Positions 52,594 through 60,936 of a DNA stretch of 64,000 nucleotides are shown piece after piece. Source of the stretch: an uncultured Granulosicoccaceae bacterium. GTDB lineage: Bacteria; Pseudomonadota; Gammaproteobacteria; Granulosicoccales; Granulosicoccaceae. Under the pieces are notes generated by a model. It made no database searches. It was given only the letters and a program-made list of their open reading frames with translations, and was not told the DNA's origin. Each line of letters starts with the position of its first letter. The first letter of the stretch is position 1. The position numbers and the translations under genes are program-made. Location of the stretch: contig CAYMHU010000001.1 of the NCBI GenBank assembly GCA_964390335.1, forward strand, positions 158,225 to 222,224, read 5' to 3'.

Positions 52594-52914
52594 ACATGTA
52601 AACAATCGCAACACGCACACATTATCAAGCAGCGCGTGTAACAGTGCGTCACAATTCAATTGTTACTAAAAACCCGGTTAATCGACAGGTAACTCGTAAC
52701 ACGTTAAGCAAAGCTTGTTATGAATCAACTTGTTAGCTGAGTGTATTGCAATGGTTATTTCGAATTGTAAATTTAAAAGCGGCTGAACCGTATTTATTTA
52801 ATAAAAAAAACGCTATACCGCAACTAACCGGTTACCCATTTAGTTGGTTGATGCTTGGTATTCGAGTTGCTAATTTCCGTGCATCGCTTAAACAGCGCGC
52901 TAGTTGTAGGTTGT

Positions 52915-54051
52915 ATGCAAACTATCATCTCTAAAAGCACATTTAACCGTAATCAATCCATTGATTCCGGTTCATTAGCCGAAGCAACGCAGAACAGATA
53001 TTCAATGGCATTGTTCAGCGAACCCGGAAGCCATGCTCGACATCAGCTCTCTAATAGCTTCGATGTTCGGCTGGTGTCATTGCATACGCCAATTCATCAT
53101 TTCGATTGCTGCTTGATCGATTGCCGTGGTCAACAACTCACTGAGCCCGCTTTAACAAACGTTGATAATTTTACCGGCGTGAAATTCGTACTAATAGATG
53201 AATTCACCATTATCTCAAACGCAAGGCAAGCCATCTCAGGTCATTATCAACTGATCACAGAAAATGAGTTCGATTCCCCAGCACTAATGGCGCGTGTCTC
53301 TGCCCATGCCTTACTAGACAATCGCTTTGACGTAACAGCCGTTACAGCCAAAACAGGTGGTTCTGCACAAGACGACACCACTGAAAGCGATAAACTTTCT
53401 GCTGCGAGCCATGATATTCGCCAACCCTTACAAGCAATCAGCCTGTTTATACACTCATTAGAATCCAAGTTAAACAATGAACAGCAACACAGCATACTGA
53501 GCAAGCTGAAGCAGTCAACCACTTCCTTACACAACTCACTGGATGACATGCTTGGCTTAATAAAAGCTAGCGCACCAAAACTGGATAAAAGCAGCGTTAA
53601 TGAACCTGCAACTATCAACAACCGGATTGTACAGTTACACCACGCGGACTCAGCAAATAAACCATTGCAGAATTACACAGTAATGGTGTTAGACAACAAC
53701 GAGGAAATCGTCGCTGCGTTGGAAACAAACTTACAAGATGCCGGGATGCACGTTTATCCCGCAACTAACTTAGATGAGGCGTGTGAAATAATAAACGAGA
53801 TCGATCAACTGCCCGACATGCTACTAGTTGATTTTAACCTTGATGACAATTGCACAGGTGACGATGCAATTCAAATGATCTGCAATACCGCGAAAAAAGT
53901 CATTCCCTCTATTGTGATTACCAGTGAAACCTGTACAACCAAATTACACCGAGCACAAGAGATAGCAACCGCCGTGCTACGCAAACCAGTACAAGCTGAT
54001 CACTTGCTAGCAACCATCAATCACTATATTGATGACACAGCAAGCTGTTAA
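52915..54051 (+). CDS. HisKA-REC signalling protein lacking HATPase domain
   Basis: H-box ASHDIRQPLQAI; C-terminal REC (VLDN..LLVDFNL..ITS..KP); no N/G1/F/G2 boxes in between. Confidence 0.7.
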   Translation: MQTIISKSTFNRNQSIDSGSLAEATQNRYSMALFSEPGSHARHQLSNSFDVRLVSLHTPIHHFDCCLIDCRGQQLTEPALTNVDNFTGVKFVLIDEFTIISNARQAISGHYQLITENEFDSPALMARVSAHALLDNRFDVTAVTAKTGGSAQDDTTESDKLSAASHDIRQPLQAISLFIHSLESKLNNEQQHSILSKLKQSTTSLHNSLDDMLGLIKASAPKLDKSSVNEPATINNRIVQLHHADSANKPLQNYTVMVLDNNEEIVAALETNLQDAGMHVYPATNLDEACEIINEIDQLPDMLLVDFNLDDNCTGDDAIQMICNTAKKVIPSIVITSETCTTKLHRAQEIATAVLRKPVQADHLLATINHYIDDTASC

Positions 54052-54076: not shown

Positions 54077-55147
54077 TTAAACTACGCCTTGATGCGTTAT
54101 CGGCGTCGATAGACTGATATTCGCATCAATACTGGCCTCCAGTATTTTCTGCCTAAACAATTGCCGGGTTTTTATTATTGAGAACTCATCCTTTGTGTAG
54201 TAGTGCACCGACCACTCAATGGCATGATCACCGGCATCTTGCAACCTGATTTCCGGCGGATGTTGAGATTCCACTGCTATCTCTTCATCTTCTACCGCCG
54301 CGGTAAACGCCACTTCAAACATTTTCTTAACTTGTTCTGGTGGGACGTCATAGCCAATTTTAAACCGCAACGTTTCGCGCAAGCCTCGCGCTGAGGCAAA
54401 GCGCGACAGATTATGCACTGTGCAGTCTCTGATCTTGGAGTTGCGCATCATGATTCGGTGGTTATCAACTAAATTCAGTAGCTCAGTATGAAACGCAAGT
54501 GTACGGTATACGATTGCGATCAAATCTTCACCGCCATCTGACACTTTGATTACATCTCGCTCTTTAAACATTTTACTGTTCAGAATAACCAGCCCGCTAA
54601 TAATATCGGGAGCCCATGCACTTTGCGTCAATGCTAAAAAGACACCGATAAAGCCGATAACCCCGCCGGCTTCCAAAAGACTATTAAATCCCGCAACCCG
54701 AATAATGGAGATCATTGCCATTACGGCTATAAAGACACTGATAAAAATTGACAAAGCACGTGAAGCATAGGTATCAGCAATTCGAGTACCCGAACCACTG
54801 TGCTGAACCAGGCGACCAAAATGGATCCGGATAAACCGACCGATAAGATGAACAGCAAGATAAGATAAATAGATGATAACCAGTACAGATAACAGCTTTA
54901 TGCCAACACCCTGGCCCGATTGCCCGTCGCCATAGAATAAAATATACCCAAGCAAGGACAACAACAATACGTTAAGACCGCGAATTACATTGACTCTGAA
55001 ATCGATCGTATTCTCAGGGGTTTCTTTGTTGGAGACATGGCTAACAATTGCGGGAGCAAACACAATCAACACCAAATTAACAACAAGCAAGCCATAGAAC
55101 AACATCGGATTTTGCGAGATGTATTGGCTTATCTGCTGTATCAGCAT
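54077..55147 (-). CDS. Small-conductance mechanosensitive channel (MscS family)
   Basis: TM helices, LLEAGGVIG..ALT..DIISG, FKIGYDV. Confidence 0.8.
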   Translation of the reverse strand: MLIQQISQYISQNPMLFYGLLVVNLVLIVFAPAIVSHVSNKETPENTIDFRVNVIRGLNVLLLSLLGYILFYGDGQSGQGVGIKLLSVLVIIYLSYLAVHLIGRFIRIHFGRLVQHSGSGTRIADTYASRALSIFISVFIAVMAMISIIRVAGFNSLLEAGGVIGFIGVFLALTQSAWAPDIISGLVILNSKMFKERDVIKVSDGGEDLIAIVYRTLAFHTELLNLVDNHRIMMRNSKIRDCTVHNLSRFASARGLRETLRFKIGYDVPPEQVKKMFEVAFTAAVEDEEIAVESQHPPEIRLQDAGDHAIEWSVHYYTKDEFSIIKTRQLFRQKILEASIDANISLSTPITHQGVV

Positions 55148-55181: not shown

Positions 55182-57068
55182 TCACGGTATTGACCCAGTG
55201 CGCCATTTATTAAAATAGTGACGCGAATCCAGCATGGGTATAAAGCCTAGCTGATACCTAAACTGTCGACCACTGATTAAATGCGGTTCAATGAAAAATT
55301 CCACGGATGCGTTTGCTCCATCACGCTTTAATCGTCCGCTTAATATTGGACTCACCACAGACGCAAGCTGGGTTTCGCTTTTAATTTTAATATAGTAGAT
55401 CTCTTGTAGCTGCCCGGATTCGTCAGGGATAATATCAGCTCTAATCTTTATTGCAGCAGAATCGCTTGCCTGGGAAATCGCTACGTTTTCGAATTCCGGG
55501 AAAGAACCCTGCGTACGATTATCGATTAGATCTTGCATGATTTGACGCCAGCGATTATTCACCAGTGCCAATTCGCAATCTATATATTGCAAGTGTGATC
55601 GCCAGAATGCCACACCTGATAAGTTTGGTGGCGCATTATCTCTACCGATAGCACGTAAAAAATTCCCCAGAGACTCAACGCCGCAAGCGTCAGCCATTGC
55701 GTGAACCCAGATATCACCAATACCGTATAACAACTCACCGTCATACAGCGTATCGAATATGGTTCGATTGGCCATTTCGGCAAACTTAATATTTTGACGC
55801 TGCCAGGCAAGCGATGAAACCAGCCAGTTGGAGTCTCTGGATACATCATCCGATACAATTGAAAACGACACATACTGCGCCATACCTTCAATGAAAAATC
55901 CAGTGCTGTTGGCGAACTCTCCAAGCTTTCGATTCGATTCTGTAGATTGCAAAACATGCGCAGTCTCATGAGACAATACACGCCTGTATAGAGGATCAAC
56001 ATCCAATGGTGTATTAAGCACCATTCGAATTTTTTTCCAAGATGCCAGACCCAAAGCATGATCACTCTCCGATGTCATATCAGCTTGAATGCGTGGCAGT
56101 TCTGTAACGCCCAGCAGTTCAGCTAATGCAGCATAGTCTTGCTCCACAAACGGAATGAGCAAGTTCATGGCCTGTGTGTCTTCGGCGTTGTACGTAAAAG
56201 AATAGTGCTCGGTGTTTTCAGCCTGAATATTTCGAATACGCGCGTCTTTTGCAGTATTACCAACCATGACTGCCAAAACACCGATCACCAGCAGAAAACT
56301 AAATACGACGCCCAATATTGGTAATATTTTCGACGCTTTACTGGTTCCTGGTGCACGTGGTTTGGAATCAGTATTAGTCCATAGGAAATAACTAACAAAG
56401 TACAAGATGAACGCAACACACAAATGGAAGCCGATGACCGCCCAATTGAGTATTAATTGTTGGCCAGAATACTCGTTGTCGAAAAACCCCAACACATTGT
56501 AAATACCGGAGAATCCAAATTGATTTTCCAGCCAGATAAGCGCGATGAGATAAGCGCAATATATAAGCAATCCGACTGTTCGAAACCAGGATAAAAATAC
56601 ACCGTGCGATATGACGACCACGGCAAAAAGAACGTTACGCAACAACAGTGCAAAGTCCACCTGCCAATAACTTTTACCCGTTAAGGATTGCGTGTTTAGT
56701 GACAGCAAACCAGCTTGAATCATATGATCAAGACTAATAAGACCAAACAACATTACCCATGCGGCAAAAATCTTGGACCAAAATAGCTTGGGCAGTTTTA
56801 CCGGCAAACTGCGAAGAAAGTCTATTGTGGAATCATCATACTCACGTGGAAAAAGATTGTATGCAGCAATTAAAATAATGAGTATTGTGAAGAGCGCAAC
56901 ATCTGAATTGCTACCAACGCGACAATAATCATCACACCAGGAGCTATAACTTTCTTCATCTATTCTGTGGGTGGCGAGCTCGGTAATATAGTACAGCGCA
57001 CTTAACGCAAACCACAGAAAAGCGAACGGTACTAACTGCTTTAATTCTTTCAGAACGAGTTGAATCAT
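55182..57068 (-). CDS. ABC-2-type permease fused to gluzincin metallopeptidase (intact site)
   Basis: KELKQL..REYDDSTIDFLRSLPV TM domain; HETAH plus EGMAQY; ATGA overlap with upstream gene. Confidence 0.75.
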   Translation of the reverse strand: MIQLVLKELKQLVPFAFLWFALSALYYITELATHRIDEESYSSWCDDYCRVGSNSDVALFTILIILIAAYNLFPREYDDSTIDFLRSLPVKLPKLFWSKIFAAWVMLFGLISLDHMIQAGLLSLNTQSLTGKSYWQVDFALLLRNVLFAVVVISHGVFLSWFRTVGLLIYCAYLIALIWLENQFGFSGIYNVLGFFDNEYSGQQLILNWAVIGFHLCVAFILYFVSYFLWTNTDSKPRAPGTSKASKILPILGVVFSFLLVIGVLAVMVGNTAKDARIRNIQAENTEHYSFTYNAEDTQAMNLLIPFVEQDYAALAELLGVTELPRIQADMTSESDHALGLASWKKIRMVLNTPLDVDPLYRRVLSHETAHVLQSTESNRKLGEFANSTGFFIEGMAQYVSFSIVSDDVSRDSNWLVSSLAWQRQNIKFAEMANRTIFDTLYDGELLYGIGDIWVHAMADACGVESLGNFLRAIGRDNAPPNLSGVAFWRSHLQYIDCELALVNNRWRQIMQDLIDNRTQGSFPEFENVAISQASDSAAIKIRADIIPDESGQLQEIYYIKIKSETQLASVVSPILSGRLKRDGANASVEFFIEPHLISGRQFRYQLGFIPMLDSRHYFNKWRTGSIP

Positions 57069-58987
57069 TGCATTACAACCCGGCCTGCCCACAAAGGTAT
57101 GGGCCTGTGAAACTCATCGCTCTCAAGCTCAAGCACAACGTAGGCCCTTTCTCCAACGGCATACCCCGGCTCAACTAAATGAGCAACACCAGTGATCACA
57201 CAAGGGCGTCGATCGCGCACGCGCGAGTAAATTGATGTTTCTATATCGAACGCTGGTGTGGGTTGATGGCGCAGCACGCACTGACCATACTCGCCTGGCT
57301 TGTAATCCGCACCGGCTCTGTAACTACCTTCAAGCAATCTGACGCCTTTCTCATTAACGACACTTTTTACCTGTGCTTGCAAGTCGGGAATGGCGTTGAG
57401 TTTCGCAGCCACACTATCGATTCGCGCTGTATCTTCTAGCCAGATCAACCAAGTTTTGATAAATTCACGTAAAGGCCATCCAGTTAGCTTTTCGAATCGG
57501 GCCTCGTCGGATACAGCCAGGCGTTTAAAAGATTCGATGGATGTATTACCTACTTTTTCGTTCACATAGTCCGAAGCTAATCGAATCACCACGTCGAAAC
57601 CACGCTCTTGCTCCAGATATTTAATGGCTGAATAAGACAATGCATCAGCCATTTCAAAACCGAGTTCATCCGTCAACGTTTGCCACAGCAACAAAGGTGG
57701 TGTGCCTTTATCGTACCGCCGCGCAGCGTGCACAGCCAATGCCATGAGCTCCGCATTGTGCTCGATCTGTAGGTTTTCCGGCGTGCCCAAATTGGCAGAT
57801 TCAGTCCACCATCTTGATAACCCATCCAAAATCCAATGTCGGGTTTCAAAATCCATACGGCTGTTCGATAAACTCAGTAAGGAATGATGCATGGCTATAT
57901 AAGCAATACCCTTGTCTTCAAACGCGTCATAGTCCAGGTAATTTGCCGTAACCAACACCCCGCTAACTAAATCGGGCTCGATCTCGGTGTGTTCAAGCTC
58001 TGTATTCAATTCTATTCTGACAGTGGGTAATTGGGTTAAACCAAGATCGGTTTTAAACTTTCCAAGTACCGTTTTTAATAACGTAGCTATCTGCGTAGCA
58101 CGCGCCAGTTGCTCTGGCTCTAAATACATAACCGCAATGGGTGGATCATCAAATCGAACCACATTGCTTGTACCAAACTCGAACGTTTCTACATCCCATG
58201 TTTTGGCAAGAGTTTGATAAAGCGTAACGGATGCAAGCACAACCAGCACCAACACAGCGATATCCCGCTTTGAGATCGGTTTGCTGAGTTTTTCTACCAA
58301 AGAGCCCTCATTGACAAGCGCTAATACATAACCGGCAGCTACCAATAGCGCTGACAATAACCAGGTCTGAATTAGTTGACTCCACGGAATGATGTCGCGC
58401 TCAAACACAAACAGTTGCCGATCCATTAGCCCAATTGGAGCCAGCAGGGCTTGATCGAAGTTTGGCGAGTTGATCAAAAACAGTAAAAACATACCCAAGG
58501 CCACATAACAAATTATGCGAATGCGGCCGGTGATGCTGATGAAGAAAACCAAACTCCATAATAGTGTGGCTATGGTTAACGTTTTCGTTAATACCAATAA
58601 TAAAAAGCGATTGTCGAGACCTTCCGAGTTGCTGGATAGTAGAACGGCAATACCCAACACGGCAGCTGCGAGCGTATTTATAAAAATAAAACCAAGGATA
58701 TACTTTATGGTCAATGGCAATGCGTTGCCCACTGGAAGCGCTTCAACAAACTGTCGAGTGCCGCCAATATATTCTCTGACGATCAGTCTATTACCTACAA
58801 TAATGGCAATTAACGGAATAACTGACATCAAGGAAAATCGGACAGTTTCAATAACACTTAAATTGAACTCGCCGCTAACTTGCTGGGCAATTAAAATTAA
58901 AACAACCACCAGTAAGCCACAAGCCAGCATCACCAAAGCCAACGTGTGTTCACGTAATTCCTTGCCCAGTAAACTGATGACGCCCAT
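57065..58987 (-). CDS. ABC-2-type permease fused to degenerate peptidase-like domain
   Basis: KELREH..REYIGGTRQFVEALPV; HHSLL and WILDGLS at the positions of HExxH and EG. Confidence 0.7.
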   Translation of the reverse strand: MGVISLLGKELREHTLALVMLACGLLVVVLILIAQQVSGEFNLSVIETVRFSLMSVIPLIAIIVGNRLIVREYIGGTRQFVEALPVGNALPLTIKYILGFIFINTLAAAVLGIAVLLSSNSEGLDNRFLLLVLTKTLTIATLLWSLVFFISITGRIRIICYVALGMFLLFLINSPNFDQALLAPIGLMDRQLFVFERDIIPWSQLIQTWLLSALLVAAGYVLALVNEGSLVEKLSKPISKRDIAVLVLVVLASVTLYQTLAKTWDVETFEFGTSNVVRFDDPPIAVMYLEPEQLARATQIATLLKTVLGKFKTDLGLTQLPTVRIELNTELEHTEIEPDLVSGVLVTANYLDYDAFEDKGIAYIAMHHSLLSLSNSRMDFETRHWILDGLSRWWTESANLGTPENLQIEHNAELMALAVHAARRYDKGTPPLLLWQTLTDELGFEMADALSYSAIKYLEQERGFDVVIRLASDYVNEKVGNTSIESFKRLAVSDEARFEKLTGWPLREFIKTWLIWLEDTARIDSVAAKLNAIPDLQAQVKSVVNEKGVRLLEGSYRAGADYKPGEYGQCVLRHQPTPAFDIETSIYSRVRDRRPCVITGVAHLVEPGYAVGERAYVVLELESDEFHRPIPLWAGRVVMQ

Positions 58988-59020
58988 GCTTAATTATTGT
59001 CTTTTGGGAGTAATAAATAC

Positions 59021-59992
59021 CTAAGTGCCGGTTTTGGCAACAACCGCAATAAACACGTCTTCGAGTGTCATTGAGTCTTCTCGCCAACCTGGCCTTAGGG
59101 GTATATCGCGCGGTGCGCCATACGGAAATTGCAACACCATGGTGTGCCTGCCATGGCGGCTAAGTGATTGCAGAACGTGGTCTGCGTTGTTGACGAAGTC
59201 TCCGGGAATATCACCTGGTTGATAGTAATCATTGCTTATTGAATAGGTAACAATACTGTTTGACAACGGCTCCAGTGCACCCTCGTACACAGCTTTGCCC
59301 GACTCCACAATACCAATACGATCGGCTATCGCTTCGATATCATCAATAAGGTGAGTGGAAAAAAATATGGTGGTGTCATCCTTTCGTGCTTCTTCACTAA
59401 CAAGATCAAGAAACTCCCTCCGCGCAACCGGATCCATACCGGCGGTTGGCTCGTCCAATATAAGGCATTCAGGTTTTGTCGCCAGCGCAACGGTGAGCGC
59501 AAGCTTTGCTTTCATGCCACCAGAAAATGTACCCACTTTACGCTTAAAAGGTAAATCGAACTGCGACAGGACATCTCGATAGCGTTGTTCATCCCAGCGC
59601 GGATAAAATCCACGTACAAACTTGCCCAATACTTTTGGCGTCATCCAGGGATAAAAATGTTGCTCCTGAGCAACGTAGCCTACACGTTGCCTTGCAGCAA
59701 CAACGTTGTCAGACACAGACTGTCCAAACAAATGAATCGAGCCACTAGAGATTTTGGTAATCCCCATAATCATTCTGATGGCAGTCGATTTACCAGCGCC
59801 ATTACGGCCTAAGAAGCCATAAACCTCGCCTTTTTGTACTTGCAGCGATAATCCATTTAAAACTTGTAGTGAACCATATCGCTTGCACACATTGTTAAGG
59901 GCAATAACGGGGGATTCTGACCGCGAAGTCATTATTCCATCAGACTGTAAAGACCCAACAGATCCGGCCTGAGCAAGTGCGGGAGAATTCAT
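59021..59992 (-). CDS. ABC transporter ATP-binding protein (DrrA/CcmA-like exporter type)
   Basis: GRNGAGKST, FSGGMKAK, LILDEPTAGMDP, STH. Confidence 0.9.
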   Translation of the reverse strand: MNSPALAQAGSVGSLQSDGIMTSRSESPVIALNNVCKRYGSLQVLNGLSLQVQKGEVYGFLGRNGAGKSTAIRMIMGITKISSGSIHLFGQSVSDNVVAARQRVGYVAQEQHFYPWMTPKVLGKFVRGFYPRWDEQRYRDVLSQFDLPFKRKVGTFSGGMKAKLALTVALATKPECLILDEPTAGMDPVARREFLDLVSEEARKDDTTIFFSTHLIDDIEAIADRIGIVESGKAVYEGALEPLSNSIVTYSISNDYYQPGDIPGDFVNNADHVLQSLSRHGRHTMVLQFPYGAPRDIPLRPGWREDSMTLEDVFIAVVAKTGT

Positions 59993-60046
59993 GGTTGGTT
60001 TTCCAAACTTGATCGGAGCAGTTTATCACTGGTCTGACAATTTACA

Positions 60047-60862
60047 TTAATGGGTCATAGAATAGATAACATAATTAACACCCATCCGATACGCCAAACC
60101 AGTAAAGCGCTCTGGATACTGTGCATCGTCGGCATGCTCCCATGCGTCACCTAAATCCTGATTAAAATTGACAGCAACCATAATTCGACCCAAGTCGTCT
60201 GTTATGCCAAGCCAAACGGGTTTGGTACCGCCTTTCTCCCACGTTCTACCGCTCATTACCGCTCTTATTCCGGGGATTTGTATGAGCGCGTCTATGGCAT
60301 AAACCAATTGAAAGGGTTCTGAGGATTTCTCCAGTTTTTCCATTTTACGATTTGGAAATATTGATTTCATGAGGGTTTCAAAATGACGCCATTCATAAGC
60401 ACCGTGAAAATCATCAACCATTAAAAACCCACCCCGCAACAGGTACTCGCGTAAACGATCCTGCTCTGCTGGCGATAAGTACATATGGCCCACTTCAACC
60501 GCATACAACCAAGGGAAATCATATAGCTCGTCTGTTTTTAAATTAACAAGCGTGCCTTCCGAATTTGTATCAACGCGGCTTAATCGCTGTAATCCTTGCG
60601 AGAAATGATATTCTGCATCCGGCCAATCGGCGCGCCAACGTGGCCATTCAAAACCACCGCTATAGGTGAGTCGTGCGAAGGTGAACTCGTGCGCAGGGCT
60701 ACGCACTACACTGCCACCAACGTTTGCGCGGTTACTGACAGGTAGTTCCTGTATCTGCACAAGTGGCTCAGCGCTTGCGCCTGCTATTGAGCTTAGCAAT
60801 AAACAACCTAGTGCTAAGCGCAGCAGAAAAGCGAGAACATTTGTTAAATAGGATTCGCGCAT
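60047..60862 (-). CDS. DUF4159 domain protein
   Basis: FTFARLTY..W..DWPDAE, YDFPWLY, LREYLLRGGFLMVDDFHG, GVNYVIYSMTH. Confidence 0.8.
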   Translation of the reverse strand: MRESYLTNVLAFLLRLALGCLLLSSIAGASAEPLVQIQELPVSNRANVGGSVVRSPAHEFTFARLTYSGGFEWPRWRADWPDAEYHFSQGLQRLSRVDTNSEGTLVNLKTDELYDFPWLYAVEVGHMYLSPAEQDRLREYLLRGGFLMVDDFHGAYEWRHFETLMKSIFPNRKMEKLEKSSEPFQLVYAIDALIQIPGIRAVMSGRTWEKGGTKPVWLGITDDLGRIMVAVNFNQDLGDAWEHADDAQYPERFTGLAYRMGVNYVIYSMTH

Positions 60863-60936
60863 ACAAAAACTATACGCTAGATCCGCGGCTTGCGGAACAG
60901 CCAAACGCGCAAACCGTTTGGCTTTACATTACCGTA

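Follow-up and report, generated by a model that had tools for sequence, protein, structure and literature searches.

The window, the full 64,000-nt stretch of uncultured marine Granulosicoccaceae DNA whose first lines stand above, carries on its minus strand four co-directional genes that encode, from upstream to downstream, a DUF4159 protein, an ATP-binding cassette (ABC) ATPase and two large membrane proteins, referred to here as the dead and the active subunit after the state of their zinc site. The original prediction, made from the letters alone, had described a DUF4159 gene, an ABC ATPase and two paralogous proteins of ~630-640 aa coupled by an ATGA overlap, with HETAH..EGMAQY in one protein and HHSLL..DGLSRW in the other. 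Open reading frames (ORFs), Pfam searches and a reading of the junction confirmed this layout, and translation at exact coordinates confirmed both pairs of motifs. The features are listed below, with coordinates given as window positions; AF2 denotes AlphaFold models.

60047-60904, minus strand: DUF4159 protein (Pfam PF13709, E 3.8e-42), with its first ATG at 60862, the end coordinate given in the original prediction
59021-59992, minus strand: ABC ATPase of 323 aa, which forms a triad with the next two genes and is its only nucleotide-binding subunit (PF00005, E 1.2e-31)
57065-58987, minus strand: dead subunit of 640 aa, a seven-transmembrane-helix ABC-2 permease with a pseudo-gluzincin domain and a C-terminal beta-sandwich (AF2, Foldseek)
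57875-57889, minus strand: HHSLL of the dead subunit, what remains of its zinc motif (residues 367-371; translation, alignment)
57809-57826, minus strand: DGLSRW block of the dead subunit, in the helix where the third zinc ligand would sit (translation, alignment)
57065-57068, minus strand: ATGA start/stop overlap from the dead to the active gene (translation at exact coordinates)
55182-57068, minus strand: active subunit of 628 aa, a seven-transmembrane-helix ABC-2 permease with a gluzincin domain (~281-520) and a beta-sandwich (~525-628) (PF12730, AF2, Foldseek)
55956-55970, minus strand: HETAH, zinc-binding and catalytic motif of the active subunit (H367, E368, H371; translation, alignment)
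55872-55889, minus strand: EGMAQY of the active subunit, in which E394 is the predicted third zinc ligand (translation, alignment)
55725-55727, minus strand: Y448 of the active subunit, candidate transition-state Tyr (invariance, spacing)

The ORF lister had drawn the active gene longer, to a GTG at 57092. At the junction the dead gene ends ...VMQ-TGA and the active gene begins MIQLV at the ATG inside ATGA; because the sequence there reads gtaATGcaATGAttc, we took the ATG overlapping the upstream TGA as the true start of the active gene. A promoter and terminator scan returned sites no more common than in shuffled sequence.

The ATPase retains legible GRNGAGKST (Walker A), FSGGMKA (signature), LILDEP (Walker B with DE) and STH (H-loop) motifs. 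Its best NCBIfam matches were PmtA (1.9e-58), DrrA, NodI and GldA, every one below its own cut-off, and against TIGR03740, the lantibiotic-protection ATPase family, it scored 144 bits where the cut-off is 310 bits. The nearest solved nucleotide-binding domains (NBDs) are those of ABCA3/7/4/1, Rv1218c (1.6e-38) and NosF (1.5e-32). The protein is a cognate ABC ATPase with intact motifs for a type V (ABC-2) exporter.

The N-terminal half of the active subunit matched ABC2_membrane_4 (PF12730) above cut-off (E 4.6e-10); the dead subunit fell below it (0.011), and many of its relatives carry precomputed PF12730 matches. A BLASTP comparison of the two subunits was marginal (E 0.015) and confined to the transmembrane region. 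Comparison of their profiles by hhalign (38 homologs for the dead and 45 for the active subunit) gave 96.6% probability across 518 columns, by which the two are real but distant paralogs. AlphaFold models, with mean pLDDT (predicted local distance difference test) scores of 79.4 for the active and 84.8 for the dead subunit, agree on seven membrane helices followed by an alpha/beta domain spanning ~240 residues and, at the C-terminus, a beta-sandwich of ~100 residues. Foldseek placed the transmembrane domain of the dead model near NosY of NosDFY (TMt 0.55-0.60) and Rv1217c; NosY was not among the top 50 matches of the active model. The ABC-2 signature and the NosY-like six-helix fold identify a permease, and the earlier description of each protein as an ABC-2-like transmembrane domain with a large external domain was borne out.

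Seven hydrophobic segments were found in the dead subunit, with nine K+R residues on predicted inside loops and three outside, as the positive-inside rule would have it, and the active model shows the same helix pattern. An N-terminus on the inside and a seventh helix are predicted to place the C-terminal domains of both subunits in the periplasm. Conserved cysteine pairs occur solely in predicted outside parts (C45/C49 and C462/C498 in the active subunit, C570/C596 in the dead subunit). A motif following TM2 is kept in both subunits, as PRE..D.T.DFL..LP in one and NRL..EY..GT..FVE.LP in the other, and may represent the NBD-coupling region.

The predicted periplasmic TM1-TM2 loop is longer in the active than in the dead subunit and contains invariant R35, D37 and E38; the live/dead asymmetry therefore reaches the outer face of the membrane domain. 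The near-invariant CxxxC of the active subunit (C45, C49; 56922-56936) also lies in this loop.

Searched against the PDB with Foldseek, the active model matched IRAP, ERAP1/2, APN, F3, LTA4H, TAF2 and the M60 protein ZmpB (E 1.6e-5 to 1e-3, probability 1.00). H367, E368 and H371 are invariant in a 45-sequence alignment of active subunits (A1), as are E394, G395, M396 and A397, with E394 lying 22 residues past the second His. In the AF2 model, HETAH and E394 fall on helices 354-377 and 386-404. HExxH was present in all 53 downstream genomic copies and, by strict regular expression, in 139 of the 145 representatives of a wide search; of the six misses, four are short and fragment-like (196-308 aa), P0286 has a shorter spacer (X19) and P0325 has truly lost the motif. 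The EGM block begins 27 residues after the first His at 52 of 53 loci, with L045 lacking the exact EGM string. Y448 is invariant and lies 81 residues past H367, and the matching Tyr of PepN from the same genome lies 84 residues past its first His; on this spacing, Y448 is plausibly the transition-state Tyr. The set H367, E368, H371, E394 and Y448 is invariant in the active lineage down to ~28% identity. With HExxH, a Glu on the following helix and a thermolysin-like fold, the active subunit belongs with the gluzincins (clan MA(E)). Foldseek placed both external domains near gluzincin/M1 structures, a result on which the original prediction depended.

Sequence models did not recover this relationship. 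PF01433 (Peptidase_M1) gave no matches at E up to 1 in 31 members and none in full proteins, and in a genome-wide search it matched solely PepN, on contig C25. Aligned to this PepN by hhalign, the external domain covered 13 columns, the HExxH helix only, at 0.6% probability. PDB and NCBIfam sequence searches of the external domains, with single sequences and profiles, gave no match, and Pfam returned only sub-threshold local matches around HExxH (DUF6055, eCIS_core, SprT-like). The domain shares with the M1 aminopeptidases (ERAP1, IRAP, APN, LTA4H) and the pseudoenzyme TAF2 the thermolysin-like fold, HExxH, a Glu in EG.A.Y and a Tyr ~80 residues on. In contrast, M1 enzymes have an N-terminal beta domain and a large helical domain IV, both of which the triad domains lack. 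M1 enzymes also have an 18-residue spacer from HExxH to the Glu, which is 22 residues here (19 in one distant member), and the GxMEN exopeptidase motif, which is absent; the equivalent strand reads DHALGLASW (H-A-x-G-L-A-x-W), with H337, G340 and A342 invariant. We therefore file the external domain as a gluzincin with an M1-like fold, outside MEROPS M1 and PF01433. The earlier label of M1 aminopeptidase holds for the fold and is too specific beyond it, given the missing sequence-model match and the missing GxMEN. A profile search with the external domain found 451 clusters at 50% identity; since nearly all of these are 620-650 aa with the domain at ~290-630, the domain is practically always fused.

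By Foldseek, the external domain of the dead subunit resembles ERAP1, the M1 lanthipeptide protease EryP and IRAP. HExxH is missing from the homologous site in 53/53 upstream copies. In the alignment of dead subunits (A2), H367 is near-invariant, the position of the catalytic Glu holds H, G or Q, and that of the second His holds L, S or I. The best-conserved stretch of the domain follows, with W385 and W394 invariant and D388, G389, R392 and W393 conserved to at least 90%. Across the domain, the most conserved residues are those of the relic cleft: H367, R377, E381, H384, W385, D388, G389, R392, W393 and W394. HExxH strings in two dead copies (HEKPH in L016 and HEWAH in L078) were rejected as chance matches ~110 residues off the homologous site. 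Synonymous divergence (dS) was saturated and dN/dS unusable, so values of nonsynonymous divergence (dN) alone were compared: against the two closest relatives, dN in the external domain was 0.082 for the dead and 0.083 for the live subunit, and because the two are equal, we conclude that the dead domain is maintained by selection. The dead subunit is predicted to have kept its fold and a conserved cleft and to have lost canonical zinc binding. Within the window, motif translation and the alignments agree with the earlier reading of one complete and one lost zinc site.

A live and a dead zinc peptidase are also paired in the alpha and beta subunits of mitochondrial processing peptidase (M16), an inverzincin (HxxEH) of a different fold and clan, which is soluble and works uncoupled from ATP and from any membrane domain. 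It resembles the triad in being an old zinc-peptidase duplication in which the zinc-less subunit was retained, plausibly for substrate binding.

Related loci (each designated by an L-number) were collected by a scan that took one genome per species, which yielded 53 loci, nearly all in Granulosicoccaceae. The order ATPase, dead subunit, active subunit, with the ATPase upstream of both permeases, was found at every locus where the contig allows, in the 53 related loci and five distant lineages. All 53 downstream copies retain an intact zinc site and all 53 upstream copies lack it; the distant loci L065, L066, L078 and L079 repeat both this asymmetry and the triad with its overlaps. Of 54 related loci, 49 have a start/stop overlap of 4 nt (ATGA 41, GTGA 6, TTGA 2), and overlaps recur in the distant triads L056, L065, L066, L078 and L079. 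Across 48 loci, identities between pairs of dead genes track those between pairs of active genes (r = 0.97), with means of 42.8% and 45.7%, respectively, the dead gene being slightly more divergent. When neighbouring ORFs at 56 loci were clustered, no further conserved family emerged; the next was a GGDEF-EAL gene at 24/56 loci, reflecting local synteny only. In 56 of 85 Granulosicoccaceae genomes the system occurs as a single copy. The cultured Granulosicoccus antarcticus (complete genome CP018632) carries it, and 398 other Gammaproteobacteria gave no true match. One weak out-of-family match among the latter (G365) proved to be an unrelated PD40/Omp85 protein. These data indicate that the live/dead asymmetry is ancient and under selection. 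Conservation of the asymmetry across homologous operons, proposed earlier as a check, was thus found; the proposed conserved operon held for its ATPase-dead-active core and failed for DUF4159, which adjoins it only in the nearest clade.

Fusions of this general kind have been catalogued as TCDB family 3.A.1.145, whose founder is Q1D520 of Myxococcus xanthus, an ABC-2/M1 fusion listed in 2013 and functionally uncharacterised (PMC3924187). As in the triad, an ABC-2 permease with a C-terminal zinc peptidase is partnered by an ABC ATPase, and the NCBI name is 'ABC transporter permease/M1 family aminopeptidase'. In Q1D520, a single polypeptide of 1200 aa combines 13 transmembrane segments (a duplicated ABC-2 domain) with one M1 domain recognised by sequence (PMC3924187). 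In contrast, the triad has two genes (628 and 640 aa), each with seven transmembrane segments and its own external domain, one of them dead, and neither domain is found by PF01433; for Q1D520 this contrast rests on its published description. A 1200-aa M1 fusion was found in none of 21 related genomes, and a literature search on permease-peptidase fusions found nothing functional. The split half-permeases, the second external domain in the form of a conserved pseudoenzyme and the divergence beyond the M1 sequence model set the triad apart from 3.A.1.145.

Taken together, we favor, at a probability of about 0.55, a heterodimeric type V ABC machine in which the cleavage of a membrane-associated, peptide-like substrate is coupled to ATP. 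The system is assigned to type V because its NBD is closest to those of ABCA, Rv1218c and NosF and its membrane fold is like that of NosY and Rv1217c. The functional unit would comprise three genes, with two copies of the ATPase powering one dead and one active membrane subunit. In each subunit, a NosY-like six-helix core would be followed by a seventh helix that puts the gluzincin-fold domain and the beta-sandwich in the periplasm, and the catalytic set (H367, E368, H371, E394 and probably Y448) would reside in the downstream subunit only. As in ABCA, Rv1217c and NosFY, binding and hydrolysis of ATP would set the membrane domains in motion, and this would extract an amphipathic, membrane-associated peptide-like substrate or present it to a chamber between the two external domains. 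Cleavage there by the live site would be of the endo- or oligopeptidase type, as suggested by the absence of the aminopeptidase anchor motif, and the dead domain would serve as the binding or gating half. What the analysis shows is gene content, folds, motifs, a predicted topology and conservation; the pairing into a heterodimer, the coupling of ATP to proteolysis and the substrate class are what we infer here. The type V class (ABCA, DrrAB, Pmt) typically handles hydrophobic or amphipathic molecules from the membrane. The heterodimeric ATP-driven protease/pseudoprotease machine of the original prediction thus stands as the best inference from folds, asymmetry and operon, with DUF4159 left out of it.

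Several results weigh against this interpretation. The fold matches carry low TM-scores (template modelling scores), computed on full-length models that include the transmembrane domain, and the external domains went unrecognised by any peptidase sequence model in the Pfam, NCBIfam and PDB searches. No substrate, precursor or regulator gene is kept near the triad by neighbour clustering at 56 loci. Formation of the putative heterodimer is deduced from genetics only. Finally, at the distant locus L056 the catalytic residues are lost in both copies and the downstream copy is ~800 residues longer; because both subunits there have lost these residues, catalysis cannot be indispensable everywhere.

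The downstream copy at L056 (1-10302) is 1433 aa long and reads YHQTLN...FFEKGLAEY, and its ~800-aa extension has no Pfam match. Directly upstream of the L056 triad lie Prok-RING_1/trypsin, UQ_con (E2-like) and DUF2752 genes, which may constitute a bacterial ubiquitin-like module.

We know of no established machine for energy-driven proteolysis outside the cytoplasmic membrane, since the periplasm lacks ATP. The conserved triad, with its ABC engine built into a protease/pseudoprotease pair, offers a concrete candidate for such extracytoplasmic energy-dependent proteolysis. A more speculative extension, which we consider unlikely as it stands, makes the triad an outward-facing counterpart of FtsH, an energy-dependent protease working on the side of the inner membrane that lacks ATP. 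The extracted membrane polypeptides would then be leftover signal peptides, lipopeptides or misinserted proteins, and the ATP-driven motion would also open and close a periplasmic clamp of one live and one dead gluzincin domain. The family is large, with the 451 clusters noted above, and occurs in most Granulosicoccaceae and in unrelated lineages; because G. antarcticus is cultured and carries the triad, its function is testable. The external domains show that fold-level relatives of M1 exist beyond the reach of any sequence model, and annotation pipelines therefore give these proteins no more than the names 'ABC transporter permease' or 'hypothetical'. The 2013 cataloguing of single-chain ABC-2/M1 fusions tempers the value of the finding.

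The closest competitor to the proposed ATP-coupled cleavage of a membrane-associated substrate is a mechanotransducer without translocation, possible but unlikely in our view, in which ATP would do no more than switch the periplasmic protease/pseudoprotease pair between a closed (off) and an open (on) state, after the manner of FtsEX-EnvC or NosDFY, and a soluble or envelope protein would be cut on demand. In its favor, the transmembrane domain of the triad resembles NosY, which acts through a docked periplasmic partner, and PDB entry titles record M1-family crystals in both open and closed states. The solved structures of NosDFY and Rv1217c-Rv1218c (7o0y, 8k1m) contain homodimeric permeases. 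Both systems resemble the triad in transmembrane fold and NBD, and differ from it in having no fused enzyme; NosY works with NosD, a separate periplasmic protein. The closest NBDs, which belong to ABCA lipid extractors and a drug exporter, argue against pure mechanotransduction; Rv1217c exports drugs (PMC11406275). ABC systems that control hydrolases have been published, with cytoplasmic ATP hydrolysis tied to hydrolase action outside the inner membrane in FtsEX-EnvC (PMC7668044) and YbbAP-TesA (PMC12646458). However, these precedents have the type VII (MacB/FtsX-like) fold rather than type V, and where the triad has fused metallopeptidases, they rely on separate hydrolases (amidases, a lipid esterase). 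The sequence itself holds nothing that separates the mechanotransducer from our preferred explanation.

An improbable alternative is a LanFEG- or Pmt-like pump for self-protection or detoxification against membrane-active peptides, which would expel an antimicrobial or self-made amphipathic peptide from the membrane and destroy it outside. An ATPase followed by two different ABC-2 permeases is the LanFEG gene order, PmtA and the lantibiotic-protection family are among the best, sub-cut-off matches of the ATPase, and the dead model resembles the lanthipeptide protease EryP. However, these ATPase matches are generic for the DrrA/NodI group, and biosynthetic, precursor and sensor genes are not conserved beside the triad at the 56 loci. 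The setting in a lantibiotic biosynthesis or regulation cluster that would be expected of LanFEG was not found, as no neighbours are conserved beyond the triad. Single copy number and vertical inheritance in one family are also unlike typical immunity cassettes. PCATs (peptidase-containing ABC transporters) are type IV exporters with a cytoplasmic C39 cysteine peptidase at the N-terminus. The triad does not fit this class, as it gave no C39 match and its peptidase is C-terminal, of metallo-type and predicted to be periplasmic.

We consider a non-catalytic role of the external domains as receptors or scaffolds very improbable, and likewise an arrangement of the permeases in two homodimeric transporters sharing one ATPase. 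In favor of these readings, the L056 lineage keeps its triad with the catalytic residues lost from both copies, and the dead domain is clearly functional without catalysis. Against a non-catalytic role stands the invariance of the five catalytic residues in the active lineage, and against two homodimers stand strict 1:1 co-occurrence, translational coupling and the co-divergence of the two genes.

The DUF4159 protein has one hydrophobic N-terminal segment (signal or anchor) and is predicted to be periplasmic. Its gene adjoins the triad in the window, in 5/7 sister-clade loci (55-61% identity) and in the closer relative L070 (84% identical). It is absent beside the triad in L004 and L008 of the same sister clade and at all other loci (45 or more), including the distant L056, L065, L066 and L078, whose upstream flanks are readable (that of L079 is too short). 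The genome holds four DUF4159 paralogs: the window copy at 60047-60904, 33 nt after livM, and copies on contigs C10 (L063:5992-6813), C19 (L062:5992-6858) and C2 (L064:5992-6744). One of these paralogs follows an Opp-type importer operon (SBP_bac_5, OppB, OppC, fused OppDF) by 4 nt, another follows a sugar importer operon (Peripla_BP_4, permease, ATPase) by 205 nt, and one lies beside redox genes, so that a recurrent link to ABC operons in this lineage is possible. DUF4159 had been said to accompany MoxR/VWA clusters, and no MoxR/VWA gene occurs within ~6 kb of any of the four paralogs in this genome. Membership in the Liv importer operon was considered and rejected, as sister loci have opposite-strand genes in between and L006 and L007 keep the DUF4159-ATPase pair without Liv. 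The only solved relative, 4i66, is an uncharacterised protein, and the literature on DUF4159 yielded nothing functional.

A four-component machine including DUF4159, as first proposed, would draw on its co-directional gene 54 nt upstream of the ATPase, its predicted location and its retention in L006, L007 and L070, but its absence from most triad loci and the two other paralogs trailing ABC importer operons already contradict it as a general claim and leave it the least probable reading. DUF4159 is a clade-specific neighbour or accessory gene, not part of the core of the machine.

Downstream of the active subunit by 34 nt lies an MscS-like channel gene (54077-55147, minus strand; NCBIfam MscS 2.6e-10, below cut-off, with a weak Pfam MS_channel match). 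It is kept in 7/7 sister-clade loci (68-75% identity) and in L070 and L072, and is absent at other triad loci. The convergent gene at 52855-54051 (plus strand) encodes HisKA and receiver domains, with no HATPase_c at E up to 1e-5; in relatives, a HisKA-(HATPase_c)-REC gene on the opposite strand occupies this position downstream of the MscS-like gene. In close relatives, a gene for EndoU_bacteria, a toxin-like RNase, lies a few kb downstream of the triad (L070:9268-9897, L072:7276-7890, L002:17754-17890).

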